From: a virus
Taxonomy: Duplodnaviria; Heunggongvirae; Uroviricota; Caudoviricetes
Direction: 5' to 3' (one strand)
IMG/VR virus record: IMGVR_UViG_2657245124_000003
DNA: 37,809 nt
In this document: positions 8,847 to 29,605 of the stretch, one piece after another
Position numbering within the stretch: position 1 is the stretch's first letter
Layout of the letters: the number at the start of each line of letters is the position of its first letter
Position numbers and translations under genes: made by a program
The notes under the pieces: generated by a model
Database searches by the model: none
What the model saw: only the letters and a program-made list of their open reading frames with translations
Told to the model about the DNA's origin: nothing

Positions 8847-8934
8847 ATATCTATGGACGGCGACGATGTTTTTTATCGGGAAAACTCAAGTGCCATGTTA
8901 AGATTATGTTTATTTTTTACTGAGAAAATCGTGG

Positions 8935-9780: not shown

Positions 9781-9797
9781 ATTTAAGGATGATATAG

Positions 9798-11735: not shown

Positions 11736-11762
11736 TGCACAATAGTGCACAAATTTGCACAA
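11736..11762 (+). repeat. three TGCACAA direct repeats at exact 10-bp spacing
   Basis: TGCACAA at 11736, 11746 and 11756, with a fourth copy at 11828 next to an A7-CGCG-T6 palindrome; lies in the gpA-hotspot/Q intergenic region where P2-type cos and packaging signals are expected. Confidence 0.5.
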
Positions 11763-12186: not shown

Positions 12187-13233
12187 TCAGGATGTGGGCT
12201 GGGTATCTAACAGTGCGTAAGGGTTAAAGCGGATCACCTCTTCGCCAAGCCAGTCATTGATGTGCTTCATGGCCTCCATGACGGGCATCAGCTCGTTAAT
12301 TGCGTAAACCCGCACGGCCTTCTCCACATCACCAAACGCACTTTTTTCGCCCGGCATCGCCCCCATCAGTTGCGGCGGAACGCGGTGCGCAGCCAGCACA
12401 TCATCACGGGATGCCGCCTTAACATTCATGAACTCATCTTTTGCGGTGATCTGCTGGAACGGCAAAATTTGCACCCCCTCTTTGCCCCCGTTGGGCGCAT
12501 GAATGAGCACGTTTTTAAACGCACCACCACCACGTGCCCCCTGTAGCGTTTCTTTCAGGGAGTCCATGCTTTCGCGGTTTACCTGCGCTGCACCGATGTA
12601 GATGATGCACCCGGCGTGGGATCCGTTGTCGTAGTACAGTTTTCTGAACATGTCCGCCGAATGAGAAAGGCTGGCCGAGAGTAATGCGCCAAGATATTCC
12701 GGCATGCCGTAGATTTCCTGGTTAATATCCGGATTCATCAGGTGGCACACTTTGCCAGGACGAAACTGGAACGCGTCCTTGCCATCCTGCACATACCACC
12801 ATGATTCAAGATCGCTTCCGCGTCGCATGTATTTCGCCAGGGCGTGCCGTAATTTAAGCGGTTCGCCGAGCATATTGCTTCGGAGCTCAAGGAATGCGTT
12901 ACCGAACACAAACCAGTCCAGCGCCAGCGCCGAGAAATCCTGCCGGGAAAGCAGCGGGTGCGGGATGTAGCAACCGAGTAATACATTGCGCTTAAAGTAA
13001 AGCGCAGACTGATGCCAGGACGTTTGCCGGGCAGCTCTTGCCAGACCGTACCAGTCCACCGGGGTTTCATACCACCGCCCGTTATCAGCACAGTACATAT
13101 TGTCCAGCAGGTCATGCCCGGTCAGGCGATAAGGACCATCAAATGTGAATGCACTGAGCGATGATTCTTTCCTGAGCGCATCAGCGAGATAAATGCGTGA
13201 ACTCATGCGCGCTTTTTTATTTTTTCTGCTCAT
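12187..13233 (-). CDS. Q: portal protein (P2 gpQ-like)
   Basis: 348 aa (P2 Q is 344 aa); position and divergent orientation relative to O-N-M-L as in P2. Confidence 0.8.
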   Translation of the reverse strand: MSRKNKKARMSSRIYLADALRKESSLSAFTFDGPYRLTGHDLLDNMYCADNGRWYETPVDWYGLARAARQTSWHQSALYFKRNVLLGCYIPHPLLSRQDFSALALDWFVFGNAFLELRSNMLGEPLKLRHALAKYMRRGSDLESWWYVQDGKDAFQFRPGKVCHLMNPDINQEIYGMPEYLGALLSASLSHSADMFRKLYYDNGSHAGCIIYIGAAQVNRESMDSLKETLQGARGGGAFKNVLIHAPNGGKEGVQILPFQQITAKDEFMNVKAASRDDVLAAHRVPPQLMGAMPGEKSAFGDVEKAVRVYAINELMPVMEAMKHINDWLGEEVIRFNPYALLDTQPTS

Positions 13234-14984
13234 CAGAACTCCATAACCGTGAAACGCTCGTTTTCTCCTTCGCCGCCAATCGGTTCGTTAATGACAGCAA
13301 GCATGGTTGCCCACGCAAGGTCGCCGTGGCTGATCCCCCTCGCTCGGTCCGTTTCGTAAGTGATAAAGCCGCCCGGTGTTTTCACCTTACGCACGGCGTT
13401 AAAGGCCGCGACCAGCTCGCGTTCGGCGCGATCGTATTCCCACCGCCCGGCACGCATTATTTGCAGCATTTTCAGTACCAGCGACCGTTTTGATGACAGC
13501 GTGAAGGTGTACGGAATAGCAGCAGGGAAAAACCGCTTCACTATCTGATAAACAGCCTCCCCGTTCCCGCCCGTCACATCAATGCCGATGTGTTCCACGT
13601 TGTAGCGATACGTGAACTCTTCAATGACTCTGGCCTGTTCTTCAAACTCCAGCCCCTGAACGCGTCGCGTCTCCACCGTTCGAAAACGGCCACCAGGAAC
13701 AGCCGGAGGAACCACCACGGACACAGCGCCGCTGTCGCCGTTGCCACTACTGCCGTTTGCGTCATACCCAATCCATACCGGACGATTCCCCATCGGTCGG
13801 GGAGCAAAAGGTTTCCAGTCTTTCCAGTCGTCGTATCCGTCAACACCGCAGCCAATCAGGATATTCAGGTTAAATGCCGATTCCCCTTCGCGGACAAACT
13901 CACACATATAGAGATTGAGGAACTCGTCTTCGGTATTTTCATCACGAATTTCGTCGATATCGGTGTGTTTCCAGCCGTGATTAACCACATCTTCCAGCGT
14001 GACAATTTGCCGCCACGTCCGGTCAGGGCAGATAAGCCCGTTATGCAGCGTATTCCAGTCCACAGAAAAACGCTGGCGTTTATGCGTGGCCTTTTTCTCG
14101 TTCCAGCGGTCGCCGTTCCAGTAGGCGTATGCTTCGTGCGTTTCGGTGGATGGCGTGGAGAAGTAGGTGCGCCGCAGTCCGCTGAGGGTTGCCATAGCGC
14201 CAGCCACCTTGCGCAGTTCAGCAAAGCGACTGACCCAGAAAAATTCATCAAAATAAAAATTGCCCGTATAGGACTGCGCCGACGCAGCAGAAGTGCCGAG
14301 AAAATGCAGCTCTGCGCCGTTGGAGAGGATGATTTTATCGCCCCCTTTCAGCTCCACATCAACTTCAGCCGCGGCCTTCTGAATAATGCTTTTAAACTGG
14401 AACGCCTGACGACGCGACGCAGACAAAAAAATCTGGTTACGCTGGTAAGGTTGCGCCACATCGTCACGCAGCGCCATCAGCAGTGCTTCCTGTGCAAAAT
14501 ACCAGGTCGCCCCAATCTGTCGGGATTTCAGGATCATCCTGTTACGTATCCCGGCTTCCCTGCAAAGGGTCAGGGAGTCAAACCAGCCCCGCTGATGCCA
14601 CTCCAGCCTGCTGATGATTTTTTCCCGCAGTGCGGCAATCTGTTCCGGCGTGAAATGATTTTTGAGTTTTTTCGCCCGGCCTTTCTTTCCTGTGGCCGTC
14701 GCATCCGGCTGGCCATCATGCAGTTTTTTAAGCTGCCGGGTCAGCAGGTCTATTTCCTTAAAGTCACCGCCTGTTTTATTCTGTTTTTCAGTAAGCTGGA
14801 TGAGGCGCGCATCGATGGACTGCGTGACACGCTGCACGGGTGGCGTTTCATCCCACTGGTCGCGTTTTTTCCACGCATAAATCGTGTTCGGGTTTATTCC
14901 CATCAGACGTGATATTTCTGCGGGCGGATAACCCTGCCAGTAAAGTTGTCGCGCACGCTGGCGCACAAAAGCGTCCTGAATCAT
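13233..14984 (-). CDS. P: terminase large subunit (P2 gpP-like)
   Basis: 583 aa; gene order Q-P on minus strand; start overlaps the Q stop. Confidence 0.8.
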   Translation of the reverse strand: MIQDAFVRQRARQLYWQGYPPAEISRLMGINPNTIYAWKKRDQWDETPPVQRVTQSIDARLIQLTEKQNKTGGDFKEIDLLTRQLKKLHDGQPDATATGKKGRAKKLKNHFTPEQIAALREKIISRLEWHQRGWFDSLTLCREAGIRNRMILKSRQIGATWYFAQEALLMALRDDVAQPYQRNQIFLSASRRQAFQFKSIIQKAAAEVDVELKGGDKIILSNGAELHFLGTSAASAQSYTGNFYFDEFFWVSRFAELRKVAGAMATLSGLRRTYFSTPSTETHEAYAYWNGDRWNEKKATHKRQRFSVDWNTLHNGLICPDRTWRQIVTLEDVVNHGWKHTDIDEIRDENTEDEFLNLYMCEFVREGESAFNLNILIGCGVDGYDDWKDWKPFAPRPMGNRPVWIGYDANGSSGNGDSGAVSVVVPPAVPGGRFRTVETRRVQGLEFEEQARVIEEFTYRYNVEHIGIDVTGGNGEAVYQIVKRFFPAAIPYTFTLSSKRSLVLKMLQIMRAGRWEYDRAERELVAAFNAVRKVKTPGGFITYETDRARGISHGDLAWATMLAVINEPIGGEGENERFTVMEF

Positions 14985-15138
14985 TGCTCCCCCTGAGTAA
15001 TTACAGGAAGATTACCCGCGCGCGAAACCGTTCTCCTTAACCCCCTGTTCTGCCTGTTTTCTTACAACAAAAGCCCTTTGTATCAGCCTGTTACGCTTTG
15101 CCATCATGACTGAAGAACCAGTCAGAGGGGCAAAAACT

Positions 15139-15975
15139 ATGGCTAATGAAAAAAAGACATCCCGCAAAAAGTTTCGCGTGGCTGTCTCCGGTGTAACGGC
15201 AGACGGGCGCGAAATCAACGGCGACATGCTGAAAGCTGCCGCCACCAGTTATAACCCGTCCGTTTATGGTGCACGTGTGAATATTGAGCACATCCTGTCA
15301 CCACTCCCCGGTAGCGAGTTTTCCGCTATGGGCGATGTTGTGGGGTTGAGCACCGAAGACATAACCGATGGCCCGCTGGCAGGTCGCACGGCACTGTATG
15401 CCGAAATTGAGCCGACCGCTCGCATGATGTCCCTGCTTAACGATGGTAAAAAAATTTACTCCAGTATTGAGCTGGAACCACAGTCAACCATCACGGGAGG
15501 CCCTTACCTGCGCGGGCTGGCAATGACCGACACCCCCGCCAGCCTGGGCACGGAACGTCTGGCCTTTGCGGCACAACAACGTATGCAACTGATGACATTC
15601 AACTGTCAGCAGGGAGACGTGGCGATGTTTACCGCCGCTATGGAGTCAGAACTTATCGAACTCACCGAACAACGTCAGGAGGAAGGCACCCAGTGGTTTA
15701 ACCGCGTTATGGGGATTATTGGCCGTGGCCGCAAAGCGGATGACGCCAGTTTCTCCCGTATTCAGGAAGTGGTGGAAGGTGTCGCAACGTCACAGGCCGA
15801 CATTATCGACCGTTTTAATGTGCTGGAAACCCGCCATCAGCAGGACAGCCAGAAAATCACTTTACTGACCACAGAGCTGGCAGAACTGAAGGAAAAACTG
15901 CGCACGCAGGACGGCGATCCGCAGAACCGGTTCACCGCAACAGGCGCAGCCTCCGACCAGCTGGCTGACTTCTGA
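15139..15975 (+). CDS. O: capsid scaffolding protein (P2 gpO-like)
   Basis: From internal ATG (MANEKKTSRKKFRVAVSGVTADGREINGDML...VYGARVNIEHIL), which aligns with the P2 O N-terminus (MAKKVSKFFRIGVEGDTCDGRVIS...VYGCRINLEHL). Confidence 0.75.
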   Translation: MANEKKTSRKKFRVAVSGVTADGREINGDMLKAAATSYNPSVYGARVNIEHILSPLPGSEFSAMGDVVGLSTEDITDGPLAGRTALYAEIEPTARMMSLLNDGKKIYSSIELEPQSTITGGPYLRGLAMTDTPASLGTERLAFAAQQRMQLMTFNCQQGDVAMFTAAMESELIELTEQRQEEGTQWFNRVMGIIGRGRKADDASFSRIQEVVEGVATSQADIIDRFNVLETRHQQDSQKITLLTTELAELKEKLRTQDGDPQNRFTATGAASDQLADF

Positions 15976-15998
15976 TAAGACAAAGGAGCAAATTTTTT

Positions 15999-17051
15999 AT
16001 GAATCTGGTGATGTCAGATATTACCCGCAACAAGCTGGGTTGCTATATGGCGCAGCAGGCGTCGCTTAACAATATCCCGGTTTCCGCACTGGTATCGCGA
16101 TTTACCGTGGAACCCTCGGTACAGCAGCGTTTTGAAAACGCCTCAAAGGAAAGCACCGAATTTACAAAAAGAATTAACGTGATCGGCGTGACCGACCAGA
16201 AAGGCGAAAAAATCCTCCTGGACACCACCGGGCCAATTGCGCGCACGAATAGCAGTTATGACGGCATCAAACGCCGTAACCCGAATAACGTGATCGATAT
16301 GAAGTCTCGTCAGTACCAGTGCGAACAGGTGAACTACGATACCTTTATTTCGTACCCACAGCTTGATACCTGGGCGGCCCACAGCGATTTTCAGTCCCGT
16401 ATCAGTACACAGATCGCCCGGCAGGTAGCGCTTGATCGCATCATGATTGGCTTTAACGGCACATCCCACGCCTACGAGTCTGATTTTCACACCAACAAGC
16501 TGCTTCAGGACGTTAACGTGGGCTGGCTGGAGCACATCAGAACCGATGCCAGCGAGCGCGTAATGAATGACGTGACGCTGACCTCCCGCAACATGGACAA
16601 CACTGTGGCGCACGCGGGTAAGTATGCGAATGCCGATGCTCTGGTACAGGATGCGCGCTCATCCCTGCTGGATGAATGGCACAAGGAAGCTGACGACCTC
16701 GCGGTGATTATGGGGCGCAACCTGTTTAACTCGCTGCGTCTGCCCGTGCTGAACAGCATCAGCGGCCAGAATCCCAATGCGGAATTACTTGCCGGGCAGC
16801 TCATCCTGTCATCGCGCACCATTGGCGGGCTGGGCGTGTTCCTTGCGCCGTTCTTCCCGGATGCAACGATGCTTATCACCTCGTTCAACAACCTGTCGAT
16901 TTACTGGCAGAAAGGTTCAATGCGTCGCCTGATGAAAGACGAGCCGGAATACAACCGCATCGCCACCTACCAGTCCATCAATGACGCTTATGTCGTTGAA
17001 GACTATGGCAAGTGCGCGATGATCACTGGCCTGAAGTTCGCCGACAGCTAA
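15999..17051 (+). CDS. N: major capsid protein (P2 gpN-like)
   Basis: 350 aa (P2 N is 357 aa), directly after O. Confidence 0.8.
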   Translation: MNLVMSDITRNKLGCYMAQQASLNNIPVSALVSRFTVEPSVQQRFENASKESTEFTKRINVIGVTDQKGEKILLDTTGPIARTNSSYDGIKRRNPNNVIDMKSRQYQCEQVNYDTFISYPQLDTWAAHSDFQSRISTQIARQVALDRIMIGFNGTSHAYESDFHTNKLLQDVNVGWLEHIRTDASERVMNDVTLTSRNMDNTVAHAGKYANADALVQDARSSLLDEWHKEADDLAVIMGRNLFNSLRLPVLNSISGQNPNAELLAGQLILSSRTIGGLGVFLAPFFPDATMLITSFNNLSIYWQKGSMRRLMKDEPEYNRIATYQSINDAYVVEDYGKCAMITGLKFADS

Positions 17052-17060
17052 TCAACTCAC

Positions 17061-17079
17061 GGCGGGCATCATGCCCGCC
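17061..17079 (+). other. perfect GC-rich hairpin just after the capsid gene
   Basis: ggcgggcat-c-atgcccgcc, 9-bp stem; no T-run, so more likely an attenuator or RNA-stability element than a strong terminator. Confidence 0.35.
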
Positions 17080-17096
17080 TGTAACGGAGAGAAAAA

Positions 17097-17897
17097 ATGA
17101 TTACTCCTGCACAACAACACTGGCAGAACGTGATGGCACAGCGCGCAGGCCGGGCGAATGAAGGTGTGGACCACGCCGCGCGTACCGCGCATGAAGAGGT
17201 GCTGTATCGTCTGCGTCTGGCACAGGCCAGGCTAAAGGGCGTACAGGCCAGAAGCGCGAAAGCCGCCATCAAAAAAGAGTTGTTGCCGGACTTTTCCGGC
17301 TGGATTGAGGGAACGCTGGAGACTGACGGCGGGCAACAGGACGAAGTAATTGCCACGCTGATGGTGTGGGCGATTGACTGCGGCGATCTTCCGCTGGCGC
17401 TGCGTATTGGTGCATATGTGGTCCGTCACAACCTCATCATGCCGGATAACTTTGGCCGTACTGCTGCCACGGTACTGACCGAAGAAATCTGCAACCCGGT
17501 ACTGACGCAGGCCGGGACGGATGCCGACGCGGATTTATCCGCCTTTATCGAACCACTGGACACACTTTGGGAAATTGTCGCCAACCAGGACATGCCGGAC
17601 GAAGTGCGCGCCAAATTATGCAAGGCGTGTGCCTTTGCCCGTCGTGGCCTGACCGATGCAGACAACATGGCCTCATCACTGAAGCTGCTGCGCGAAGCGA
17701 TGCACCTGAACCCGAACGCAGGTGTGAAACGCGAGATTGCAACCCTTTCCCGCGCCCTGAAAAAAGCCGATTCCGCAGCCGCACCAGAAGACGCCAGCGC
17801 ACAGCAGACGCAGGACGAAAGCAGCAAAAGTAAAAAGACAACGCAGAAGCCTGCAACACGAAAAACCACCGCGTCGCAGAAGGCGAAGCGCGGTTAA
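17097..17897 (+). CDS. M: terminase small subunit (P2 gpM-like)
   Basis: 266 aa, position after N; basic, low-complexity C-terminus. Confidence 0.7.
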   Translation: MITPAQQHWQNVMAQRAGRANEGVDHAARTAHEEVLYRLRLAQARLKGVQARSAKAAIKKELLPDFSGWIEGTLETDGGQQDEVIATLMVWAIDCGDLPLALRIGAYVVRHNLIMPDNFGRTAATVLTEEICNPVLTQAGTDADADLSAFIEPLDTLWEIVANQDMPDEVRAKLCKACAFARRGLTDADNMASSLKLLREAMHLNPNAGVKREIATLSRALKKADSAAAPEDASAQQTQDESSKSKKTTQKPATRKTTASQKAKRG

Positions 17898-18000
17898 CGA
17901 CTGACCCCGTCAGCGGGCGGCGTGCGCGGTGTTCCGGTTTGACTCCGTGACCGTTTACACCGCGCACCCTCCGCCCGATTTTTTTTCAGGAGTGAACTCC

Positions 18001-18495
18001 ATGAGTATGGTTGCCAGAACTGAACCAGGACCCGCAGAGGACGACATCACCGATACCGATGATGGCGACACTCGCATTTCAGCAGGTGCATTCTGGCCGG
18101 ATATTGTGCTGCGCGAGCTGCGTCTGGCGGTACGACTGCCGGGCCGCGTGACCACCTCCCGCCTGCTGCATACCGCCACTGGGGCCGTGGCTTACGTTAC
18201 CCGCGAACTGGAAGCGTGGCAGCAGGAACAGCAGGCGGCTGGCCATCAGACGCTGGCCGATGTTCCGGCACCCGTAATTAACGGAGAAAGCGTCAATCTC
18301 TGGCACTGGCGCAATGCTGTTTATACCGCCACACGTGCCCTGATTCTGGAGCGTTACCGCGATGCGGACACAACGGACAAGGGCGATCGCCGGGCGGACG
18401 CACTGGATATACAGACATCGGATTTGTGGCGCGATGTGAGCTGGGCCATCTCTGACATTCTGTGCCGCCCGCGAATCTTTGCGGAGTTGTGCTGA
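18001..18495 (+). CDS. L: head completion/stabilisation protein (P2 gpL-like)
   Basis: ATG at 18001 after GGAG; 164 aa (P2 L is 169 aa). Confidence 0.65.
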   Translation: MSMVARTEPGPAEDDITDTDDGDTRISAGAFWPDIVLRELRLAVRLPGRVTTSRLLHTATGAVAYVTRELEAWQQEQQAAGHQTLADVPAPVINGESVNLWHWRNAVYTATRALILERYRDADTTDKGDRRADALDIQTSDLWRDVSWAISDILCRPRIFAELC

Positions 18496-18695
18496 TGAAA
18501 GTGAAGGCACTGGAAGACGACACCGTGGATTCGCTCTGTTTCCGGTACTACGGCACGACGCAGGGCGTCACCGAAAAGGTGCTGGATGCCAACCCCGGAC
18601 TCTGTCAGCAGGTATTTCTGGACGCCGGGCAGGAAGTGGAGATGCCGGAGCCGGAGAAGAAGAAACGAGAAATGATTCAGTTGTGGGGGGAGTAG
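18495..18695 (+). CDS. X: tail protein X (P2 gpX-like)
   Basis: 66 aa starting MKVKALEDDTVDSLCFRYYG..., size and position match P2 X. Confidence 0.6.
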   Translation: MKVKALEDDTVDSLCFRYYGTTQGVTEKVLDANPGLCQQVFLDAGQEVEMPEPEKKKREMIQLWGE

Positions 18696-18698
18696 CAG

Positions 18699-19021
18699 TG
18701 AGCACCATTCAAACAGGGATCACAGAGCAGGTTATTGCGTGGCTCTTTGACCACCTGCCAACGGTGTATGCAGTAGGCGCGGCGGTCAGCATTTCCGCGC
18801 TGATGAGTCTTTATGACGGACGAACACTGGTTCAGACCGTAACGGGATCGCTGGCGTGCGGCGTTCTTGCCATGGCCGTGGCCGGGTCGTTGCGCTTCTT
18901 CGGGTTTCCTGAAGATGCCGTAACGTTTATCGGCGCATCAATCGGTTTTATGGGGGCAGAGAAAGTACGCGACAAGGTTATTGCGGCCTTTAATCGCAGG
19001 GTGAAGGAGAAGGACGAATGA
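18699..19021 (+). CDS. holin candidate
   Basis: GTG start; about 107 aa with two to three hydrophobic segments and a charged C-terminus; sits just before the endolysin. Start codon uncertain. Confidence 0.45.
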
Positions 19022-19410
19022 GCAACACATTTAAATTCAGCAGCCGGAGCGAAAAGAATTTGCAGGGCGTAAATCCTGATCTGGTGAAAGTGACCCGACG
19101 GGCACTGGAAATTTCGGAAGTGGATTTTGGTATCACCGAAGGATTGCGCAGCCGTTACCGCCAGAAGCAACTTGTGGCCACGGGTAAGAGCCATACCATA
19201 AACAGCCGCCACCTTACGGGGCATGCCGTGGATGTTGTGGCTTATGTCGGCAGCCAGGTGTCATGGGAATGGCCGCTGTACGAAAAAATCGCAGCAGCAT
19301 TCAGACAGGCCAGCCAGGAACTGAATATTCCGGTGGAATGGGGCGGCGACTGGAAGACCCTGAAAGACGGACCGCATTTTCAGTTACCACACGGAGCCTA
19401 TCCGGCATGA
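19018..19410 (+). CDS. endolysin, peptidase M15 (LAS metallopeptidase) type
   Basis: 130 aa; SRHLTGHAVDV (H-x6-D zinc ligands) and C-terminal GPHFQ histidine; unlike the P2 K lysozyme. Confidence 0.65.
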   Translation: MSNTFKFSSRSEKNLQGVNPDLVKVTRRALEISEVDFGITEGLRSRYRQKQLVATGKSHTINSRHLTGHAVDVVAYVGSQVSWEWPLYEKIAAAFRQASQELNIPVEWGGDWKTLKDGPHFQLPHGAYPA

Positions 19411-19814
19411 AGCTCTGGCCCACGCTTGGCGTCGCTTTCCTTCTGATTGCCGCATGGGGAACATCCATGCGTCTGTCGTGGTCGCTGGGCCGGGAGAACG
19501 CCAGAAACGAAGCGCAGACCAGCACCCTGAAAAGTACCGTCGACACACTGAATATCATCAGCGCCGGGGTACAGGATATGCAGCAGGTGCTGGCTCAACT
19601 CCGCGCGGAAAATCAGCAACGCAATCAGGACGGAGAGGTAAGACGTGAACAGCTACGCAACGATATTGCAAAAGATGAATGCGCCCACGCTTTGCCTGAC
19701 GCTCGTTTTACTGACAGGTTGCGCAGGCACGCAGAACGCGCCACGGCCAGCGCCGTCAGTCCGGCTTATACCGCAGACGCTGACCATGCCGGTAACGCCT
19801 CCCCCCTTCCCTGA
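19407..19814 (+). CDS. i-spanin (LysB/Rz-like)
   Basis: N-terminal TM segment LWPTLGVAFLLIAAWG then coiled-coil-like region; follows the endolysin. Confidence 0.5.
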   Translation: MKLWPTLGVAFLLIAAWGTSMRLSWSLGRENARNEAQTSTLKSTVDTLNIISAGVQDMQQVLAQLRAENQQRNQDGEVRREQLRNDIAKDECAHALPDARFTDRLRRHAERATASAVSPAYTADADHAGNASPLP

Positions 19815-19956
19815 CCCACCCACATGGGGAAACCTCGGAATATGGGGCGACCGCCTTCTGGATGCACTGGAAACCTGTAACGCGGAGAAACGGGCCATTG
19901 CTGAACTGGATAAGAGAATAGCCGAACTGACACACCAGACGGGAGTAACACAATGA
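19675..19956 (+). CDS. o-spanin lipoprotein (LysC/Rz1-like)
   Basis: MNAPTLCLTLVLLTGCAG has a lipobox (LTGC); Pro-rich mature part; overlaps the i-spanin in another frame. Confidence 0.55.
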   Translation: MNAPTLCLTLVLLTGCAGTQNAPRPAPSVRLIPQTLTMPVTPPPFPDPPTWGNLGIWGDRLLDALETCNAEKRAIAELDKRIAELTHQTGVTQ

Positions 19957-21833
19957 CCAGTAAGAACTTTGCACTGATTACAGCCATGACACAGGCTGAA
20001 CTGACCCGGAAAGTGAATGAATATCTTGCGAAGGGGTGGCATCTTCAGGGGGACACACGGGTAGCTTACGAGCCCGGCACCCCGTGGTATCTCATGCAGG
20101 CCATGGTGGCCGATGGTGCCACCGAGACGCCCTCTGAGCCATTACCAAACAACAAGACGCCGGAATGGTACTACGTGGTTGTGCTTGCCGGGCAGTCCAA
20201 CGGCATGGCTTACGGTGAAGGGCTTCCGTTACCGGATTCTTACGATGCTCCGGATCCGCGCATTAAACAGCTGGCGCGCCGCAGTACGGTAACCCCGGGG
20301 GGAGAGGGTTGTACGTATAACGACATCATCCCGGCTGACCACTGTCTGCATGATGTGCAGGATATGAGTACGCTGAATCATCCGAAGGCGGACCTGAGCA
20401 AAGGTCAGTACGGCTGTGTGGGACAGGGACTTCATATTGCCAAAAAACTACTCCCGTATATCCCGAATAACGCGGGGATCCTGCTGGTACCATGCTGTCG
20501 TGGTGGTTCGGCATTCACTCAGGGCGCGGAGGGAACATTCAGTACGACCACGGGGGCCAGCCAGGATTCGGCGCGCTGGGGTGCGGGTAAGCCGTTATAT
20601 CAGGACCTGATCGCACGCACCAAAGCGGCATTACAGAAGAACCCGAAAAATGTGTTGCTGGCGGTGTGCTGGATGCAGGGCGAATTTGACATGAGCGCTG
20701 CCACCTACGCACAGCAACCGGACCTGTTCACGGCCATGCTGAAGCAGTTCCGTACTGACCTTTCCGGATTTAACGCGCAGTGCCATGGCGGCAGTGCTGC
20801 AGTTATACCGTGGATTTGTGGCGACACGACGTATTACTGGAAAAACACATACGGCACACAGTATGACTCCGTCTACGGCGCGTACAAAAACAGGGAGAGC
20901 GACAACGTTTTCTTTGTGCCGTTCATGACCGACGGTAACGGCAACAACACGCCCACCAACTTACCGGCAGAAGACCCGGATATTGCTGATGCAGGTTATT
21001 ACGGCGCGCAATCCCGTAGTAATGGTAATTGGGTATCGTCAAATCGTCCGACACATTTCAGTTCATGGGCGCGCAGGAGCATTATTTCGGATCGCCTGGC
21101 AACCGCTATTCTGAACGCTGTTGGTCGAACCAGCGCCTTCATCAGCGGTACCGCACCGGAGATTAAACCCTCGCCCGGCGGCGACACTCCATCGGGGCCG
21201 TCTGATGGTGACACATCCGTTCGTACAGTCTCCCTGCTGCCGACAGCCGGAGAGGCTGCTGCGCAGGGCTGGACCATCACCGGCGGCAGTGTTGCGCTGG
21301 AAGATGGTGTGTTTAAGGTTACCAAGCAGAGCAATAAAACTTGGTCCCTGATGCATCCGGTGGATGACGCAGTCTCCCTGCTGACACGGGGCGGCAGACT
21401 GAGCTGTAAGTTTCGACTGTCAGGCGCACTGACCAACAACCAGTTCGGTCTGGGAATTTATCTGTATACCGATGTAGCGTTACCTGACGTCGTGGCGATG
21501 ACCGGGACTGGTAACCCGTTCCTGATGTCGTTCTTCACCCAGACCACAGACGGCAAACTGAATCTGATGCATCACAAGAAAGCCGGAAACACAAAGTTGG
21601 GCGAGTTCGGGAATTACAGTAACGACTGGCAGACGCTGGAGCTGGTGTTCACCGCCGGCAGTGCCACGGTTACTCCGAAACTGAATGGAGTGGCTGGCCC
21701 GGCATTCCAGGTCATAAAAGACAGTCTGACACTGGGGCTGAATGCGCTGACGTTAACTGATATCACTAAAAATGCCGCGTACGGCGTCGATATCGGCAGC
21801 CTGGTGCTGGAAATCAATAATCCCGCAGTATAA
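19953..21833 (+). CDS. NanS-p-like esterase: N-terminal DUF1737 domain, SASA/SGNH-type carbohydrate esterase domain, C-terminal lectin-like domain
   Basis: 626 aa; N-terminus MTSKNFALITAMTQAELTRKVNEYLAKGWHLQG matches the DUF1737 pattern of prophage NanS-p proteins; LAGQSNGMAYGEG carries the GQSN block of sialate O-acetylesterases; inserted between the lysis cassette and tail-completion gene R. Confidence 0.6.
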   Translation: MTSKNFALITAMTQAELTRKVNEYLAKGWHLQGDTRVAYEPGTPWYLMQAMVADGATETPSEPLPNNKTPEWYYVVVLAGQSNGMAYGEGLPLPDSYDAPDPRIKQLARRSTVTPGGEGCTYNDIIPADHCLHDVQDMSTLNHPKADLSKGQYGCVGQGLHIAKKLLPYIPNNAGILLVPCCRGGSAFTQGAEGTFSTTTGASQDSARWGAGKPLYQDLIARTKAALQKNPKNVLLAVCWMQGEFDMSAATYAQQPDLFTAMLKQFRTDLSGFNAQCHGGSAAVIPWICGDTTYYWKNTYGTQYDSVYGAYKNRESDNVFFVPFMTDGNGNNTPTNLPAEDPDIADAGYYGAQSRSNGNWVSSNRPTHFSSWARRSIISDRLATAILNAVGRTSAFISGTAPEIKPSPGGDTPSGPSDGDTSVRTVSLLPTAGEAAAQGWTITGGSVALEDGVFKVTKQSNKTWSLMHPVDDAVSLLTRGGRLSCKFRLSGALTNNQFGLGIYLYTDVALPDVVAMTGTGNPFLMSFFTQTTDGKLNLMHHKKAGNTKLGEFGNYSNDWQTLELVFTAGSATVTPKLNGVAGPAFQVIKDSLTLGLNALTLTDITKNAAYGVDIGSLVLEINNPAV

Positions 21834-21856
21834 GGAAGAGCAGGAGAGCAAAACAG

Positions 21857-22324
21857 ATGCTTAAGACAAACAGTCTGCGAGAGTCCATGCTTCATGGGTG
21901 TCGGTGGTGCCAGGCTAATCCCGAGAAATTCACCATTTTCGTGGAGAGCGGCAACATTGAAACGACCGGAGAAGCGCCCTCGTTTGTTTACCGCTATCAG
22001 ATGGTGATGTTTGTCATGGATTACGCCGGAGAGCTGGACGACCTCACGCTGCCGCTGCTGGCGTGGTTATCCGAAAATCAGCCACAGTTGTTGCTCAATC
22101 CGGAGCGTAATCAGGACATCAAATTTTCTGCCGTTATCAATGACGATGACAGCGCCGATCTCCTGTTTACGCTCCCCCTGCGGGAACGCGTTCGCATCAC
22201 GCGCAACAGTCAGGGCACACCGCAGGCAGAACACCTGCCGGAGCCAAAACCCCGTCTGCCTTCTTCCGAAGGCGACTGGTCGCATGTATTCCAGGATGTG
22301 ACGTGGGGTGAAAGCGATGGATAA
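21857..22324 (+). CDS. R: tail completion protein (P2 gpR-like)
   Basis: 155 aa, identical in length to P2 R; gene order. Confidence 0.7.
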   Translation: MLKTNSLRESMLHGCRWCQANPEKFTIFVESGNIETTGEAPSFVYRYQMVMFVMDYAGELDDLTLPLLAWLSENQPQLLLNPERNQDIKFSAVINDDDSADLLFTLPLRERVRITRNSQGTPQAEHLPEPKPRLPSSEGDWSHVFQDVTWGESDG

Positions 22325-22952
22325 GGCATTCACCCGCGTGGATGAAACCTTTGAGGCTATCCGCGACAGCCTGAATCAGCAGGCCATCAATAACATCGCC
22401 AGAAAGCTGGCACAGGATTTACGTCGCGCCCAGCAGGCACGTATCCGGTCACAAAAAGCGCCGGACGGGACCGAATGGACACCACGCAGACGCCGCGTAA
22501 CCCGGATACAGGAGCGCATTCGCTTTATCTGGAATAACGAAGCACGCACGCTGAAAAACTGGCATCACGACACGGGGAAATACGGGCGAACCATTACCGG
22601 GTGGGATGAGGATAAAAACAATATCCGCACGTTTTACCGGGATGACATCGACCGTTTTCTGGAAATACGCACCCGGCGCATCAACCAGGACAGCACAAAG
22701 CGCGTCCCCATGTTCGTAAAACTGCGCACCGCCCGCTACCTGAAAGCCCGTGCAGATGCCTCCGGTGTGACGGTGGGTTACAGCGGCGTGGCCGCACGTA
22801 TTGCACGCGTTCATCAGTTCGGTGAGCGCGATCAGGTTGCGCCGGGCATTTTCACCGATTACCCGGTACGTGAGCTGTTGGGTATCAGCCAGGCAGATGA
22901 GCGCCTGATTTATAACACGGTGCTGGGCCGGATTGCGGAGGCTGTACGGTGA
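22308..22952 (+). CDS. S: tail completion/virion morphogenesis protein (P2 gpS-like)
   Basis: Position between R and V; the true start may be the ATG at 22317. Confidence 0.65.
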   Translation: MKAMDKAFTRVDETFEAIRDSLNQQAINNIARKLAQDLRRAQQARIRSQKAPDGTEWTPRRRRVTRIQERIRFIWNNEARTLKNWHHDTGKYGRTITGWDEDKNNIRTFYRDDIDRFLEIRTRRINQDSTKRVPMFVKLRTARYLKARADASGVTVGYSGVAARIARVHQFGERDQVAPGIFTDYPVRELLGISQADERLIYNTVLGRIAEAVR

Positions 22953-23530
22953 GCGCAGAACTCATGCGACTGCTGAGCAACATCATCCGCACCGGGATCA
23001 TCTCTGAAGTTGATGAGAAGTCCTGGCGCGTGCGCGTTCGCAGCGGCGAACTGGAAACAGGCTGGTTGCGCTGGAACACCACGCGCGCGGGAGCCTTCAA
23101 TGTGTGGCTGCCGCCATCACCAGGCGAACAGGTGGTAATTGCCTGCATTGGCGGCAACCCGGAAACCGCCATGATAATTGGCAGCCTGTGGAGTGATGCC
23201 AGTCCGGCCCCCGGCAAAAGCCTGAAAGAAATCGTGGTCAGCGCGCCGGATGGCGCGGTGTTCCGCTACGACGCAGACGCTGGCGCACTGAGCGCCAGCG
23301 GCATGAAAACAGCCACCCTGCAGGCATCCGTCAGCGTGACACTGGATACGCCCGTCGTGGAATGCACAAACCTTCTGAGAACAGCGACGCTTGACGTCAC
23401 AAAAGGGGGAAAGATGAGCGGCAATATCACGCACAGCGGCGGCAACTTCACCTCAAACGGCATCACAGTGCATACGCATAAACACGGTGGCGTGAAAGGC
23501 GGCAGCGATTCGACAGGAGGCCCGCAGTGA
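22949..23530 (+). CDS. V: baseplate spike/assembly protein (P2 gpV-like)
   Basis: 193 aa; order V-W-J-I as in P2. Confidence 0.75.
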   Translation: MSAELMRLLSNIIRTGIISEVDEKSWRVRVRSGELETGWLRWNTTRAGAFNVWLPPSPGEQVVIACIGGNPETAMIIGSLWSDASPAPGKSLKEIVVSAPDGAVFRYDADAGALSASGMKTATLQASVSVTLDTPVVECTNLLRTATLDVTKGGKMSGNITHSGGNFTSNGITVHTHKHGGVKGGSDSTGGPQ

Positions 23531-24777: not shown

Positions 24778-25378
24778 TTCGTTGTTACCACCATCAGCCA
24801 GCAATTTCATGCGTTGTGCCGAAGCCGTCGGAACACGCATTACAGACATTCCGGTAGACCTCAACACGCTGTGGTCGCCGGACACCTGCCCGGTGCATCT
24901 GCTGCCTTATCTCGCCTGGGCGTTTTCCGTTGACCGCTGGGATCGCAACTGGCCGGAAGAGACAAAGCGACAGGTGATTCGTGATGCATGGCTGATACAC
25001 CGACACAAAGGGAGCATCAGCGCACTGCGAAGAGCCGTGGAGCCTCTCGGCTACCTGATTGAAGTAAAGGAGTGGTGGCAACTCAACGAGGAGCCGGGAA
25101 CATTTCGCATTGTTGTCGGAGTACTTGATCAGGGCATCACCGATGAAATGCATCAGGAACTTGAGCGCCTTATTGCGGATGCAAAACCAGTAAGTCGCCA
25201 TCTGACGGGGCTGGCGATCAGCCTGAGTGTGAACGGAAAGATTTTCGTTGGTACGGGATGCTATCACGGCGATGCCCTGACGGTTTATCCCTACACCCCG
25301 GAGTCCATTATTGTCGAAGGGGACTATTTCCCTGCCCCGGCCATTCATTTAATTGATAATCTGAGAGTAAACGCATGA
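24770..25378 (+). CDS. I: baseplate protein (P2 gpI-like)
   Basis: ATG at 24770 overlapping the J stop (MSNSLLPPSASNFMRCAEAV...). Confidence 0.7.
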   Translation: MSNSLLPPSASNFMRCAEAVGTRITDIPVDLNTLWSPDTCPVHLLPYLAWAFSVDRWDRNWPEETKRQVIRDAWLIHRHKGSISALRRAVEPLGYLIEVKEWWQLNEEPGTFRIVVGVLDQGITDEMHQELERLIADAKPVSRHLTGLAISLSVNGKIFVGTGCYHGDALTVYPYTPESIIVEGDYFPAPAIHLIDNLRVNA

Positions 25379-26970
25379 CAGTGAAATACTACGCTATTCT
25401 GACTAATCAGGGCGCGGCACGACTGGCTAACGCGACGATGCTCGGCAGTAAACTGAATCTGACGCAAATGGCCGTTGGTGATGCAAATGGTGTGTTACCA
25501 ACACCAGCCCCTGCACAAACAAAACTGATTAACCAGAAACGCATTGCACCGCTGAATCTTCTGAGTGTTGACCCTAACAATCAGAGCCAGATTATTGCGG
25601 AGCAAATCATCCCTGAAAACGAGGGAGGATTCTGGATCCGTGAGATTGGTCTTTATGATGATGAAGGTGTACTCATTGCGGTGGCAAACTGCCCGGAAAC
25701 GTACAAACCGCAGTTGCAGGAAGGCAGTGGACGCACCCAGACTATCCGCATGATTCTGGTTGTCACGAACACCGAAGCCATCACGCTGAAAATCGACCCG
25801 TCTGTGGTTCTGGCAACCCGCAAATATGTGGATGATAAAATATCAGAGCACGAACAATCACGACGTCACCCGGACGCCTCGCTGACCGTAAAAGGTTTTA
25901 CTCAGTTAAGCAGTGCAATTAACAGTGAATCAGAAACACTGGCCGCAACACCGAAAGCGGTTAAGGCTGCATATGACCTGGCTAACGGGAAATATACCGC
26001 CAAGAACGCCACCACTACACAAAAAGGGATTGTTCAGCTCAGTAGCGCCACGAACAGCACGTCTGAAACGCTGGCAGCGACACCAAAAGCTGTTAAGGCG
26101 GTAATGGATGAAACGAACAAGAAAGCACCATTAAACAGCCCGGCACTGACCGGAACGCCAACAACACCAACAGCGCCACAGGGGGCTAATAGTACCCAGA
26201 TCGCAAGCACGGCTTTCGTTATGGCCGCGATTGCCGCACTTGTAGATTCGTCACCTGATGCACTGAACACGCTGAACGAACTGGCTGCGGCGCTGGGCAA
26301 TGACCCGAATTTTGCGACCACCATGACTAACGCGCTTGCGGGTAAGCAACCGAAGGATGCCACCCTGACGGCGCTGGCGGAGCTTGCTACATCAGCAGAT
26401 AAACTCCCATATTTTACAGGGGCAGATCGTGCCGCGTTAACCGCGTTGACAAGTGTTGGACGTGCCATTCTTGGTAAAACCAGCACTCAGGGAGTTCTTG
26501 ATTACCTTGGTTTAGGAGAAGGTTCTGCACTGCCCGTTGGTGTGCCCGTTCCGTGGCCCTCAGCAACACCACCAACGGGCTGGCTGAAATGTAACGGTGC
26601 AGCATTTTCTTCTGAAATGTACCCCAAACTGGCAAAAGCCTACCCCACCAATAAATTACCGGATTTACGCGGTGAATTTATCCGTGGCTGGGATGATGGG
26701 CGCGGGGTGGATGCCAGAAGGGGCATCTTAAGCATGCAGGGGTGGTTAACAGGAAGTCATTATCATAATATTCGGTCATGGGACGCGTGGGATAACACGG
26801 TACTGGTGCCAAATGACAAAGGAGGGGATAGTCTGTTGTCGACAGATAACGCCGTCCGGCAAGGTGCAATTAACGGTAGATTTACCAGTCAATACAGAAC
26901 GGAATCCTCAGAGGGGAATGAAACCCGCCCACGCAATATTGCCTTCAATTATATTGTGAGAACCGCATAA
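25375..26970 (+). CDS. H: tail fibre protein (P2 gpH-like) with collar domain and variable C-terminal tip
   Basis: 531 aa; repeated ETLAATPKAVKA tail-fibre repeat motifs; C-terminal Phage_Tail_Collar-like segment GWLKCNGAAFSSEMYPKLAKAYPTNKLPDLRGEFIRGWDDGRG; ends ...RPRNIAFNYIVRTA. Confidence 0.8.
   Translation: MTVKYYAILTNQGAARLANATMLGSKLNLTQMAVGDANGVLPTPAPAQTKLINQKRIAPLNLLSVDPNNQSQIIAEQIIPENEGGFWIREIGLYDDEGVLIAVANCPETYKPQLQEGSGRTQTIRMILVVTNTEAITLKIDPSVVLATRKYVDDKISEHEQSRRHPDASLTVKGFTQLSSAINSESETLAATPKAVKAAYDLANGKYTAKNATTTQKGIVQLSSATNSTSETLAATPKAVKAVMDETNKKAPLNSPALTGTPTTPTAPQGANSTQIASTAFVMAAIAALVDSSPDALNTLNELAAALGNDPNFATTMTNALAGKQPKDATLTALAELATSADKLPYFTGADRAALTALTSVGRAILGKTSTQGVLDYLGLGEGSALPVGVPVPWPSATPPTGWLKCNGAAFSSEMYPKLAKAYPTNKLPDLRGEFIRGWDDGRGVDARRGILSMQGWLTGSHYHNIRSWDAWDNTVLVPNDKGGDSLLSTDNAVRQGAINGRFTSQYRTESSEGNETRPRNIAFNYIVRTA
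26495..26520 (+). promoter_or_regulatory. hix/gix-like recombination (crossover) site inside the tail fibre gene
   Basis: TTCTTGATTACC-TT-GGTTTAGGAGAA: two 12-bp imperfect inverted half-sites around a 2-bp core, resembling the Hin/Gin/Cin site consensus (..AAACC-NN-GGTTT..); encodes the DYLGLGEG junction. Confidence 0.5.
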
Positions 26971-27581
26971 TGAATAACGCGATATTAAATGATGACCTTA
27001 TTGCCGTACAGGCAGGAAACATCGTCGTTTATAACTATGATGGTGAGACACGGGAATATATTTCCGAATCAACTGAATATCTTGCTGTGGGTGTTGGTAT
27101 TCCGGCTAATTCCTGTTTAGATGCCCCAGGCGCACATAAATCTGGCTATGCTATTCGCCGTTCGGAGGATTTAAATTCATGGGAGTATGCGCCAGACCAT
27201 CGTGGTGAAACCGTCTATAGCACTGACACGGGAAACACCGAAGAAATCACGGCGCTGGGTGACTACCCGAAAAATACAACCACTATCGCCCCGTTAACAC
27301 CATACGATAAATGGGATGGTGAAAAATGGGTGACAGATACTGAGGTACAACATCGTGCCGCAGTAGAAGCGGCAGAAACCAAGCGCCAGTCACTGGCTGA
27401 TGCGGCAATGGATTCCATAAGTCTGATTCAGTTGAAGTTGCGGGCCGGGCGGAAGTTGACGCAGGCAGAAACCACCCGGCTTAATGCCGTGCTGGATTAT
27501 ATAGACGCGCTGAACGCAATGGATATAAACATGGCACCAGATATCAACTTGCCGGAAATACCACTGGCATCAGCCAGTTGA
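26970..27581 (+). CDS. G: tail fibre assembly chaperone (P2 gpG/Tfa-like)
   Basis: 203 aa; C-terminal region (LNAVLDYIDALNAMDINMAPDINLPEIP) of typical Tfa type; immediately follows H. Confidence 0.7.
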   Translation: MNNAILNDDLIAVQAGNIVVYNYDGETREYISESTEYLAVGVGIPANSCLDAPGAHKSGYAIRRSEDLNSWEYAPDHRGETVYSTDTGNTEEITALGDYPKNTTTIAPLTPYDKWDGEKWVTDTEVQHRAAVEAAETKRQSLADAAMDSISLIQLKLRAGRKLTQAETTRLNAVLDYIDALNAMDINMAPDINLPEIPLASAS

Positions 27582-27587
27582 ATATAA

Positions 27588-28064
27588 CTAAGCCGCCCTC
27601 ACGATATAGTTAAATGCAATATTGCGGGGGCGGGTTTCACTACCACCTGTGTTACCAATACTTCCTCGTGAATGAAGCGTTGGTGATGGAATCAAACTCC
27701 CTCCTGTATTTGTGGCATCAAGCCCCCTGCCTTGTGTATATGTTTTTTTGAAAATCGTAGCCAACTCCCATTCATCTTTTGTGTCATATCCATCGTTAGC
27801 TACAACAATATGGCGGTGTTTTTCCAACATCCCGTTTTGAATGCTCAATAAAGCGCGTGCCGCATCAATTCCTCGCCCATCATCCCAGCCACGGATAAAT
27901 TCTCCGCGTAAATCCGGTAATTTATTGGTGGGGTAGGCTTTTGCCAGTTTGGGGTACATTTCAGAAGAAAATGCTGCACCGTTACATTTCAGCCAGCCCG
28001 TTGGTGGTGTTGCTAAGGGCCATGGAACAGGCACACCAACGGGCAGTGCAGAGCCTTCCCCCAA
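27588..28064 (-). other. silent tail-fibre C-terminal cassette 1 (collar domain plus variable tip; no ATG start)
   Basis: Begins at the LGEGSALPVGVPVPWP... junction (TTG called as start), shares about 68 aa with the H collar region, then a unique tip, ending RPRNIAFNYIVRAA; crossover-like site TTCCCCCAAACCAACGTTTTCATGC at 28056-28080. Confidence 0.7.
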
Positions 28065-28074
28065 ACCAACGTTT

Positions 28075-28578
28075 TCATGCGGCTCTTACGATGTAATTGA
28101 ATGCAACGTTGCGAGGGCGAGTTTCTGTACCTACATTTCCACTAATTTTACCAAACTGTTTTATATTACGAGAGCTAATGGCTCGTAGTGAGGAAGGCAC
28201 CCTTAAACCGGGTTCGTCTGTTTTAACTATTCCCCCGTCCCCGTATGTAGCCAGTATTCCAGGGTTTAATCCTTCCCGTGCACTTTCCACGGCAAGTCCG
28301 TTCCCGGTCCATAATTCCATATAGTGTGCATGATCCAAAATTGTGTGTGGCTGCCAATTAAGCAAAGCGCGGCCAGCATCCACCCCGCGCCCATCATCCC
28401 AGCCGCGAATAAATTCTCCCCGTAAATCCGGTAATTTATTTGCGGGGTAGGCTTTTGCCAGTTTGGGGTACATTTCAGAAGAAAATGCTGCACCATTGCA
28501 TTTCAGCCAGCCCGTTGGTGGTGTGGCTGAGGGCCATGGAACGGGCACACCAACAGGCAGCGCAGAACCTTCCCCCAA
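28075..28578 (-). other. silent tail-fibre C-terminal cassette 2
   Basis: Same conserved N-terminal collar segment and C-terminal RPRNVAFNYIVRAA with a different middle region; crossover-like site at 28570-28594 overlapping the stop of cassette 3. Confidence 0.7.
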
Positions 28579-28588
28579 ACCAACGTTT

Positions 28589-29017
28589 TCATGCTGCCCT
28601 TACGATGTAATTAAACGCAATATTACGAGGACGAATGGTTACATAATTGACCCCATCACCTCGTGAAGGCCCTGCAAATGAAAAACGGGAAAAGCTTGGT
28701 TGGTTAGAAACAATTTGGTCATAGTTATTGATTGAATGACCAGACCCAATGTCGAAATTACCTCCGTAATGAGAAAAACTTGTACCATCCTGCCCTGAAA
28801 GCAGGGTACGTCCCGCATCAATCCCGCGCCCATCATCCCAGCCACGGATAAATTCACCGCGTAAATCCGGTAATTTATTGGTGGGATAAGCCCTTGCCAG
28901 TCTGGGATACATTTCAGAAGAAAATGCTGCGCCGTTACATTTCAGCCACCCCGTTGGTGGTGTTGCTGAGGACCACGGAACGGGCACACCAACGGGCAGC
29001 GCAGAGCCTTTCCCCAA
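28589..29017 (-). other. silent tail-fibre C-terminal cassette 3
   Basis: Same architecture; crossover-like site at 29009-29033. Confidence 0.7.
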
Positions 29018-29027
29018 ACCAACGTTT

Positions 29028-29591: not shown

Positions 29592-29605
29592 AGAGGATGT
29601 TTTTT

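Follow-up and report, generated by a model that had tools for sequence, protein, structure and literature searches.

Why does a phage built on a P2 backbone carry a gene for a sialate O-acetylesterase of the NanS-p type between its lysis and tail genes, where did the parts of this gene come from, and whom would its product serve? The gene in question lies at positions 19953–21833 (+ strand) of IMG/VR record IMGVR_UViG_2657245124_000003, a stretch of viral DNA of 37,809 nucleotides that is referred to here as the window. The window is a P88-like (Xuanwuvirus, Peduoviridae) P2-type prophage, and a prophage in Escherichia coli AR_0013 agrees with it along its length at 98–99.8% identity. The explanation that best covers the evidence as a whole, and that we consider quite probable, is that the gene is a P2-lineage NanS-p allele encoding a sialate 9-O-acetylesterase that would be released by lysis and serve the lysogens.

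Domain architecture and catalytic residues of the esterase

The gene appears in the ORF list as an ATG-started open reading frame (ORF) of 626 amino acids, with the same start in the RefSeq annotation of the near-identical AR_0013 prophage, and its product is a genuine NanS-p that has the full set of three domains (i.e., DUF1737, SASA/SGNH and DUF6645). The hidden Markov model check for SASA and DUF1737 that had been proposed in an earlier note on this DNA recovered both above their Pfam gathering cut-offs, i.e., DUF1737 (PF08410) at residues 4–53 with 27.5 bits (cut-off 24) and SASA at residues 75–271 with 47.6 bits (cut-off 24.8, E = 2e-12). DUF6645 (PF20350) was likewise found above its gathering cut-off, at residues 477–587 with 70.1 bits (E = 2e-19), and PHROG family phrog_143 matched the esterase from end to end with 1080 bits. 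A search of PDB sequences with phmmer moreover matched residues 69–388 to NanS/YjhS (3PT5, E = 9e-122) and residues 431–623 to the crystallised C-terminal domain of the phi24B NanS-p (6YP6, E = 4e-30), both of which are far beyond chance.

An AlphaFold2 model, built from database homologues, had a mean predicted local distance difference test (pLDDT) score of 73, with values of about 70–84 in DUF1737, about 90 in the C-terminal domain, and only moderate values in parts of the catalytic domain. When this model was compared with the PDB by Foldseek, 3PT5 was returned with a target-normalised template modelling (TM) score of 0.83 and 56% identity, and 6YP6 with a score of 0.85 and a root mean square deviation of 2.1 Å, followed by L-type and legume lectins. 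Despite the moderate pLDDT, the fold matches of the predicted structure are unambiguous, and the return of 6YP6 and then of lectins indicates that the lectin-like C-terminus is real. The NanS-p architecture that the earlier note had read from the sequence (DUF1737, a GQSN esterase and a lectin-like C-terminus) is therefore backed by Pfam, PDB sequence matches and Foldseek.

The DUF1737 domain, which is of a P2-lineage type, takes up residues 1–55 (19953–20117; Pfam and AlphaFold2 model); it was modelled as strand-helix-strand-strand (E5–11, H14–26, E30–38, E46–53) and contains a loop, EPG[TV]PWYLMQAM, that is invariant in all P2-type sequences. It is followed by a hypervariable first linker of residues 56–68 (20118–20156; pLDDT below 50), with only 0–16% identity even to the P2-type alleles of strain EC958 and the O104 strains, by the SASA/SGNH catalytic domain of residues 69–390 (20157–21122; 3PT5 alignment, Foldseek and homologue alignment), by a Pro/Ser/Gly-rich second linker of residues 391–430 (21123–21242; again with pLDDT below 50), and by the C-terminal lectin-like jelly-roll domain (DUF6645) of residues 431–626 (21243–21830; Pfam, 6YP6 and Foldseek), all on the + strand.

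The SGNH-type blocks were intact, with GQSN at residues 80–83 (Ser82, nt 20196–20198), QGEFD at residues 242–246, and the last block as RPTH at residues 365–368 (His368, nt 21054–21056); Ser82, His368 and the other block residues were invariant across an alignment of 32 homologues. Published descriptions of NanS/NanS-p give the same pattern of blocks, and the RPTH variant is documented for the NanS-p of phage 86 (PMC10462455). Because residues 1–70 contained no hydrophobic stretch (maximum Kyte-Doolittle(11) = 1.0), the protein has no signal peptide.

That the gene directly precedes the tail completion genes R and S, and that one homologue (P0022, 752 amino acids) has a tail-collar Pfam domain, could still point to a tail-associated depolymerase or a tail-spike-like enzyme. 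However, DUF1737, the NanS catalytic domain and the NanS-p lectin domain account for the whole length of the protein, which lacks an N-terminal adaptor of the tail-fibre or tailspike kind; genes H and G for the tail fibres are located elsewhere (25375–27581), with invertible cassettes of their own, and P88 builds functional tails without the gene. A role in the tail is thereby effectively refuted.

The occupied site in the late operon

The late gene order of P2-type phages is present in the window (Q, P, O, N, M, L, X, lysis, R, S, V, W, J, I, H, G, FI, FII, E, T, U, D and ogr), with Pfam backbone matches to GPL, tail X, GpR, tail_S and base_V. The esterase gene occupies the slot where P2 goes directly from lysC to R, as had been noted earlier, and P88 likewise has no gene there, its lysC overlapping R directly. 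P88 and about 12 esterase-less relatives matched both flanks at ~97% identity, in two pieces, and blastn against P88 delimited an occupied-site segment at 19901–21898 (+ strand) with 1,998 bp in place of 93 bp of P88, so that, measured against P88, there is indeed an insertion. Within this segment, lysC differed from that of P88 in its last ~18 codons and R in its first ~14 codons, and the flanks were 98–100% identical to those of the occupied-site prophages of O104 and EC958. Since the diverged lysC and R ends match other occupied prophages in this way, the segment looks like an occupied-site haplotype and not a fresh insertion scar.

Upstream of the esterase, Pfam and PHROG identified a holin of the lambda S family (18698–19021; Phage_holin_3_1 with 70.7 bits, phrog_126; coordinates from the AR_0013 annotation with an offset of 48), a Peptidase_M15_4 endolysin (19018–19410; 45.3 bits in Pfam, phrog_465 with 253 bits), an Rz-like inner-membrane spanin (DUF2570, 19407–19814; phrog_214 with 142 bits, AR_0013 annotation) and LysC, an Rz1-like outer-membrane spanin (19645–19956; Pfam LysC with 50.5 bits; the start annotated in AR_0013 corresponds to 19768). 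Downstream lie the gpR tail completion protein (21857–22324; P2_Phage_GpR with 132.5 bits), GpS and GpV. The genes given here with coordinates are all on the + strand, and the neighbours are thus those that the earlier note had named.

The stop codon of lysC overlaps the ATG of the esterase gene (ATGA at 19953–19956), which is preceded by GGGAG, and the esterase is apparently translationally coupled to lysC. At the other end, only 23 nt separate the esterase stop codon from the start of R. Promoter-like sites were not in excess over 17800–23200 (2 weak sites vs. 3.4 expected from shuffled sequences), nor were terminator-like sites (4 vs. 5.1 expected), the sole one on the + strand being at 18785, upstream of the esterase. 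The GC content of the gene (0.56) was the same as that of its flanks. The esterase gene is an embedded member of the late operon, with neither a promoter nor a terminator of its own, and its designation as a moron was not borne out, since the overlap with lysC, the short gap to R and the lack of signals above the shuffled expectation do not fit a classical moron.

The further idea that a combined lysis-plus-esterase module had been acquired did not hold either. The holin/M15/spanin cassette is normal for P88-like phages, as P88 itself carries it at 97% identity without the esterase, and so do the other esterase-less relatives, about 12 in all. Moreover, in a second P2-like lineage (NCTC9112 type, see below), the esterase in this slot follows a cassette of the Phage_lysozyme type. 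Comparison of the flanks with Stx phages, i.e., phages encoding Shiga toxin (Stx), yielded matches only at 20159–21818, inside the esterase gene, and the DNA of the lysis cassette bore no similarity to that of Stx phages. P88 and the lysozyme-type second lineage rule out that this cassette was transferred together with the esterase.

Exchange of the catalytic and lectin body with lambdoid prophages

Stx and other lambdoid phages matched the window only over the same 20159–21818 stretch, at about 87% identity, and their megablast matches to the gene began at nt 207. The alleles were also compared domain by domain. The allele of EC958, which is of the P2 type, was 95, 85 and 93% identical to that of the window in the N-domain (residues 1–55), the catalytic domain and the C-terminal domain, respectively. 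The corresponding values were 22, 70 and 33% for phi24B, 33–35, 89 and 85% for Stx1a_11KH263, and 22, 81 and 91% for phage 86.

In a 60-nt sliding comparison, the ~1.1 kb from 20609 to 21748 were 98–100% identical both to the P2-like allele of O104 and to that of a lambdoid prophage in strain AVS0786, and identity collapsed at about 20130–20190, around the first linker, and at about 21750–21810. These breakpoints show the exchanged unit to be the catalytic and lectin body, without the N-domain and the last few codons. By this comparison, the exchange of the body with a lambdoid prophage is recent. The bodies of P2-like alleles are also polyphyletic, with the catalytic domain of one second-lineage allele (locus L113) being 84% identical to that of the lambdoid PhiR12_3 and that of the window 89% identical to Stx1a_11KH263. 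Together, the alignments show the body to be a cassette that has repeatedly been traded with lambdoid and Stx prophages through homologous recombination. The modular exchange between phage families that the earlier note had suggested is thus upheld for the catalytic and lectin body, and fails for the lysis cassette and for the DUF1737 N-domain, which is specific to the P2 lineage.

One further locus combines the two families within a single contig. IMGVR_UViG_2529292998_000004 (5000–21875; locus L015) has P2-type capsid and lysis genes followed by a nanS-p with the P2-type N-domain, past which lie lambdoid holin, lysozyme, terminase and portal genes, and no gpR. Either a P2-like and a lambdoid prophage have recombined here within the nanS-p body that they share, or the contig is a chimera that arose in assembly at this repeat.

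A P2-specific N-domain and a second P2-like lineage

The N-domain had a distribution of its own. With tblastn, the P2-type N-domain was found in three P88-like phage records only, vs. 353 records for the whole protein, and its identity was 22–35% to lambdoid N-types and 55–67% to the second P2-like lineage. Among the IMG/VR loci, the P2-type N-domain (type C) occurred together with P2 markers in 10 of 10 cases and in none of the 72 lambdoid loci.

The second lineage came to light through an exhaustive HMMER search with the N-domain, which gave 8 hits, one of which (P0131) led to seven viral contigs (L107–L113) and a prophage in E. coli NCTC9112 (L114; NZ_LR134079, 12879–21053). This type of prophage was present in 14 of the 5,426 complete E. 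coli genomes to which all genome counts given here refer, and had no megablast match in the collection of deposited phages. Its proteins were 62% (gpN), 70% (L), 65% (X), 58% (R), 46% (S) and 58% (V) identical to those of the window, gpN being the P2-family major capsid protein (15999–17051, + strand, after its AR_0013 annotation), which is 99% identical between the window and the EC958 and O104 prophages. The lysC–R slot of this lineage holds a NanS-p of 642–656 amino acids, with a lysozyme-type (Phage_lysozyme) cassette upstream, and in the NCTC9112 type a DUF1378 gene follows the NanS-p gene, as it does in Stx phages.

The NanS-p proteins of the second lineage were 55–67% identical to that of the window in the N-domain (26–39% to lambdoid types), 68–71% in the catalytic domain and 30–39% in the C-terminal domain, the NCTC9112 C-terminal domain being 56% identical to that of phi24B. 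As the N-domain has diverged about as much as the structural proteins, it is an old P2-like component, with the bodies as polyphyletic imports.

A word-indexed search for a stand-alone P2-type DUF1737 gave only fragments of the nanS-p gene. The HMMER hits included two small proteins (P0134 and P0136, about 48% identity), and no genomic context for P0136 was found in the viral contigs. P0131 and P0132 were rejected as separate genes, being truncated calls of the second-lineage allele. Among the other NanS-p homologues, P0067, P0088 and P0097–P0100 (682–689 amino acids) had a longer N-terminus without a DUF1737 Pfam hit, and the extra tail-collar domain of P0022 is PF07484. Such longer N-termini may be further adaptor types or gene-call fusions.

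Carriers of the gene

With megablast, the whole gene was matched in 1,460 of the 5,426 genomes; there were ~5,800 copies in total, the median being 2–3 and the maximum 10 per genome. The first 208 nt, which cover the N-domain and linker of the P2-type allele, were matched in 378 genomes. All 40 of the 40 matches listed for this fragment fell in a DUF6645 gene, most also extending over an annotated lysC, and these 40 lie in P2-like prophages. As about 7% of the complete E. coli genomes have a P2-type allele, the gene is not the unusual find for which it had been taken. An empty P88-type lysC–R junction was found in about 689 genomes, so that, with 378 genomes occupied, roughly one-third of P88-like prophages carry the gene.

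Carriers of the P2-type allele include the ST131 strains EC958 and JJ1887, O26 and O111 strains, and the O104:H4 lineage, where it lies next to lysC (outbreak strains C227-11, 2011C-3493 and HUSEC2011; in C227-11 at NZ_CP011331, 1681594–1683474). The exact allele of the window was rarer and occurred in only 9 complete genomes; compared with the O104:H4 allele, 593 of 626 amino acids were identical, with the differences clustering in the linker (residues 56–69) and in residues 84–211. A scan with one genome per species found the three-domain protein only in Escherichia, other genera having the single-domain NanS type. The accessible literature contained no relevant report of NanS-p in P2-like or Xuanwuvirus phages, and a P2-like context was never mentioned.

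Possible docking of the N-domain on the capsid

The conserved and lineage-specific N-domain raises the possibility of a partner within the phage. In phi24B, according to a preprint, the NanS-p (gp84) is an abundant virion protein, of which the DUF1737 domain forms a hexamer that, via a Tyr42 loop, plugs the centres of hexons in the T=9 capsid, as resolved by cryo-electron microscopy; it binds only hexons on three-fold axes, and is proteolytically processed after about residue 54–57 and before the C-domain (10.64898/2026.04.10.717836). The fold described for this domain, i.e., one helix and three antiparallel strands (10.64898/2026.04.10.717836), agrees with the model of the window's N-domain, and the second linker of the window's protein stands at the inter-domain position where phi24B gp84 is cleaved, the SSP motif not being conserved. 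By analogy, DUF1737 may dock the esterase on hexamers of the gpN capsid, with virions carrying or shedding the enzyme, a reading that deserves to be entertained even though the chances lie clearly on the other side. The more specific proposal, in which DUF1737 would be a capsid adaptor tuned to gpN (T=7) via its invariant loop, with esterase and lectin as a freely traded plug-in payload, is tentative and in our judgement rather unlikely.

Alternatively, the protein may be a soluble "public-good" enzyme that is never part of the virion, with another function for DUF1737, for example in oligomerisation, in solubility or in keeping the protein in the cytoplasm. The P2-specific sequence of this domain would then reflect linkage only, the N-domains being too diverged from the lambdoid ones to recombine and only the conserved body being exchanged; indeed, as the most conserved part of the gene, the body is the expected substrate for recombination between co-resident prophages. 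This alternative has, in our estimate, not quite an even chance of being right. It has to contend with the fact that in phi24B, the sole case examined, DUF1737 binds the capsid by experiment. In addition, across the two P2-like lineages, whose capsid proteins are only 62% identical, conservation within the N-domain is highest in the loop that corresponds to the anchor loop of phi24B. Finally, phage 86 combines a phi24B major capsid protein (MCP; 100%) and a phi24B N-domain (98%) with a foreign, window-type body (81–95%), as if the N-domain had stayed with its capsid.

The association between N-types and capsids was surveyed more broadly. N-type A (phi24B, phage 86 and PhiR12_3) occurred with the phi24B MCP in 3 of 3 cases, and N-type C with P2 markers not only in the 10 IMG/VR loci mentioned above, but also in all 7 second-lineage loci and in three phage records. 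A strict rule of one N-type per capsid family fitted the first 9 annotated cases, and was broken by N-type B in a sample of 82 loci.

This last result is the first of several that weigh against capsid docking and, for the most part, in favour of a soluble enzyme. The lambdoid N-type B (loop AITPYTLMQA) occurred with two unrelated head families, i.e., an HK97-like protease-MCP fusion (S78) at 14 loci and a lambda E/D-type head at 28 loci, without any sequence sub-structure by head (L017–L093, L009). Because N-type B spans two head families, the N-type is not strictly capsid-specific, and linkage would suffice to account for the P2-specific type. The anchor residue Tyr42 of phi24B aligns to Thr43 in the window, where the loop reads EPGTPWYLMQAM and the invariant Trp45-Tyr46 stand two to three residues from Thr43. 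The SISSP/SSP processing motifs are absent as well, with SISSP and PSSPSG in phi24B vs. GATETPSEP and KPSPGGDTPSGPS in the window. P2 capsids have a T=7 geometry, without hexons on three-fold axes. The gene is moreover dispensable for the virion, since about 689 genomes have P88-type prophages with the site empty. Finally, N-domains within the second lineage were only 76–78% identical where gpN was 98–99% identical, and co-divergence is therefore loose. Literature searches found neither virion proteomics nor a structure for P88-like phages, and no solved structure of DUF1737 or of the phi24B capsid was found in the PDB.

If docking were true, the P88-like virions that ST131 and O104:H4 strains produce would be decorated with, or would shed, a mucin-modifying sialate esterase. 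A P2-type capsid would then offer a new example of a decoration protein that bears an enzyme, and point to a general adaptor-plus-payload design for DUF1737 proteins.

Proposed role of the esterase

Independently of its possible place in the virion, the esterase would be made only upon lytic growth of the prophage, from the Ogr-dependent late operon (O-N-M-L-X-holin-endolysin-Rz/LysC-[esterase]-R-S). In the proposed mechanism it would accumulate in the cytoplasm, as it has no recognisable export signal, and leave the cell through lysis by the adjacent holin, M15 endolysin and spanins. Once outside, the lectin-like C-domain would target glycans and the SGNH domain would remove O-acetyl groups from 5-N-acetyl-9-O-acetylneuraminic acid (Neu5,9Ac2) on mucins, and the de-O-acetylated sialic acid could become usable for the surviving lysogen population. 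Lysis release and mucin feeding are extrapolated here from the characterised NanS-p family (PMC8065619) and from P2 biology.

All five NanS-p proteins of C227-11, as well as those of EDL933, are reported in a review to be active esterases on Neu5,9Ac2 and mucin glycans (PMC8065619). The P2-like copy of C227-11 is likely to be one of these five, and activity of the window's allele on Neu5,9Ac2 may be presumed by proxy of this 95%-identical C227-11 allele only.

A role in the service of the phage itself was also considered, in which the esterase would act on O-acetyl groups of the bacterial surface (O-antigen, or capsules such as O-acetylated polysialic acid), and their removal would aid adsorption of the progeny or prevent its trapping on debris, instead of feeding lysogens on mucin. 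This possibility has been raised for NanS-p (PMC8065619); a virion association as in phi24B would place the enzyme near cell surfaces, and the lectin-like C-domain varies strongly, with 30–39% identity between types, as receptor-binding modules do. However, the catalytic domain is 56% identical to that of chromosomal NanS, which is a dedicated Neu5,9Ac2 esterase, and the gene lies outside the tail-fibre cluster and lacks a tail-attachment domain. The characterised NanS-p enzymes, moreover, have free Neu5,9Ac2 and mucin glycans as their substrates and enable growth on these (PMC8065619). We therefore regard a surface-glycan esterase as improbable, and retain a lysis-released sialate esterase that serves the lysogens as the preferred reading.

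Other features of the window

Outside the esterase locus, a low-GC island at 8935–11495 (about 31% GC, roughly 8500–12000) lies between replication gene A (5924–8749) and the portal gene. It encodes a D12 Dam-type methyltransferase (404 bits to PADLOC PD-Lambda-5_B) and a 565-amino-acid AAA_15/AAA_21 ATPase resembling PtuA/AriA/GajA (about 58 bits), and looks like anti-phage defence cargo in a known variable hotspot of P2.

At 26499–30205, a ~215-nt segment of the 3′ part of the tail-fibre gene H recurs as four inverted copies with 90–92% identity (27838–28077, 28376–28591, 28815–29030 and 29332–29542), next to a recombinase-like ORF (about 29411–30205). The region looks like a multi-cassette invertible host-range segment, in which the window has ~1.27 kb more cassettes than the AR_0013 prophage and is otherwise 98–99.8% identical to it.

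In the window, both the portal gene (12187–13233, − strand) and gene D (35833–37074, + strand) are intact ORFs. In the AR_0013 prophage, the portal gene is interrupted by a stop codon and the D-like gene is truncated, and for this reason the window's copy of both looks like the functional version. A Hok/Gef-family toxin ORF of 46 amino acids (37569–37709, + strand) lies at the right end, after ogr, the ORF being identified by correspondence with the AR_0013 annotation, and no tRNA gene was found within the window.

Comparison with known systems

The NanS-p proteins of Stx and other lambdoid phages (933W L0105/z1466; phi24B vb_24B_21, i.e., gp84; 6YP6) have the same three domains and the same SGNH block variants as the window's protein and no signal peptide, and their genes likewise have a late-gene location beside the lysis cassette. 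In particular lambdoid alleles, the catalytic domain is 70–89%, and the C-domain up to 91%, identical to that of the window. They differ in host phage, as the window is a P2-type myovirus whereas the Stx NanS-p belong to lambdoid phages, and in position, since in Stx phages nanS-p lies upstream of S-R-Rz, between stx/Q and the holin gene S, whereas in the window it lies downstream of the lysis genes, from lysC to R. The C-domain of phi24B is only 33% identical, and three of the four aromatics of its binding site are changed in the window (F498/Y503/F528/L594).

Chromosomal NanS (YjhS, 3PT5) shares a catalytic domain of the same fold and with the same predicted reaction, at 56% identity over about 320 residues. 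Unlike the window's protein, however, it is a single-domain enzyme without DUF1737 and the lectin-like domain, and it is part of the host nan regulon and not of a phage late operon.

Among the P88-like prophages themselves, those of the O104:H4 (C227-11, 2011C-3493) and ST131 (EC958, JJ1887) strains have their NanS-p in the same slot, with flanks that are 98–100% and an N-domain that is 95% identical to the window's, the EC958 allele having a more diverged catalytic domain (85%). In P88 and its relatives without the gene, the sequence to either side matches the window's backbone at 97% identity, lysis cassette and R/S/V included.

NanS-p has so far been treated as a feature of Stx/lambdoid prophages of enterohaemorrhagic E. 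coli, and is here found as a regular passenger of P2-type prophages. Because the P2-type carriers make up about 7% of genomes, including ST131 and O104:H4 strains, the capacity for de-O-acetylation of sialic acid would extend well beyond Shiga toxin-producing E. coli, and two phage families are lumped together in counts of "nanS-p copies". With the shared ~1.6-kb body, prophages that are otherwise unrelated have a stretch of homology that could mediate recombination between them. Since this body is exchanged at up to 100% identity and the N-domain is kept within the lineage, the P2-type alleles also constitute a natural experiment for the claim that DUF1737 binds capsids. Set beside these known systems, the enzyme family is known and the location is documented, if little discussed; what is new is the P2-specific DUF1737 joined to a freely traded payload.

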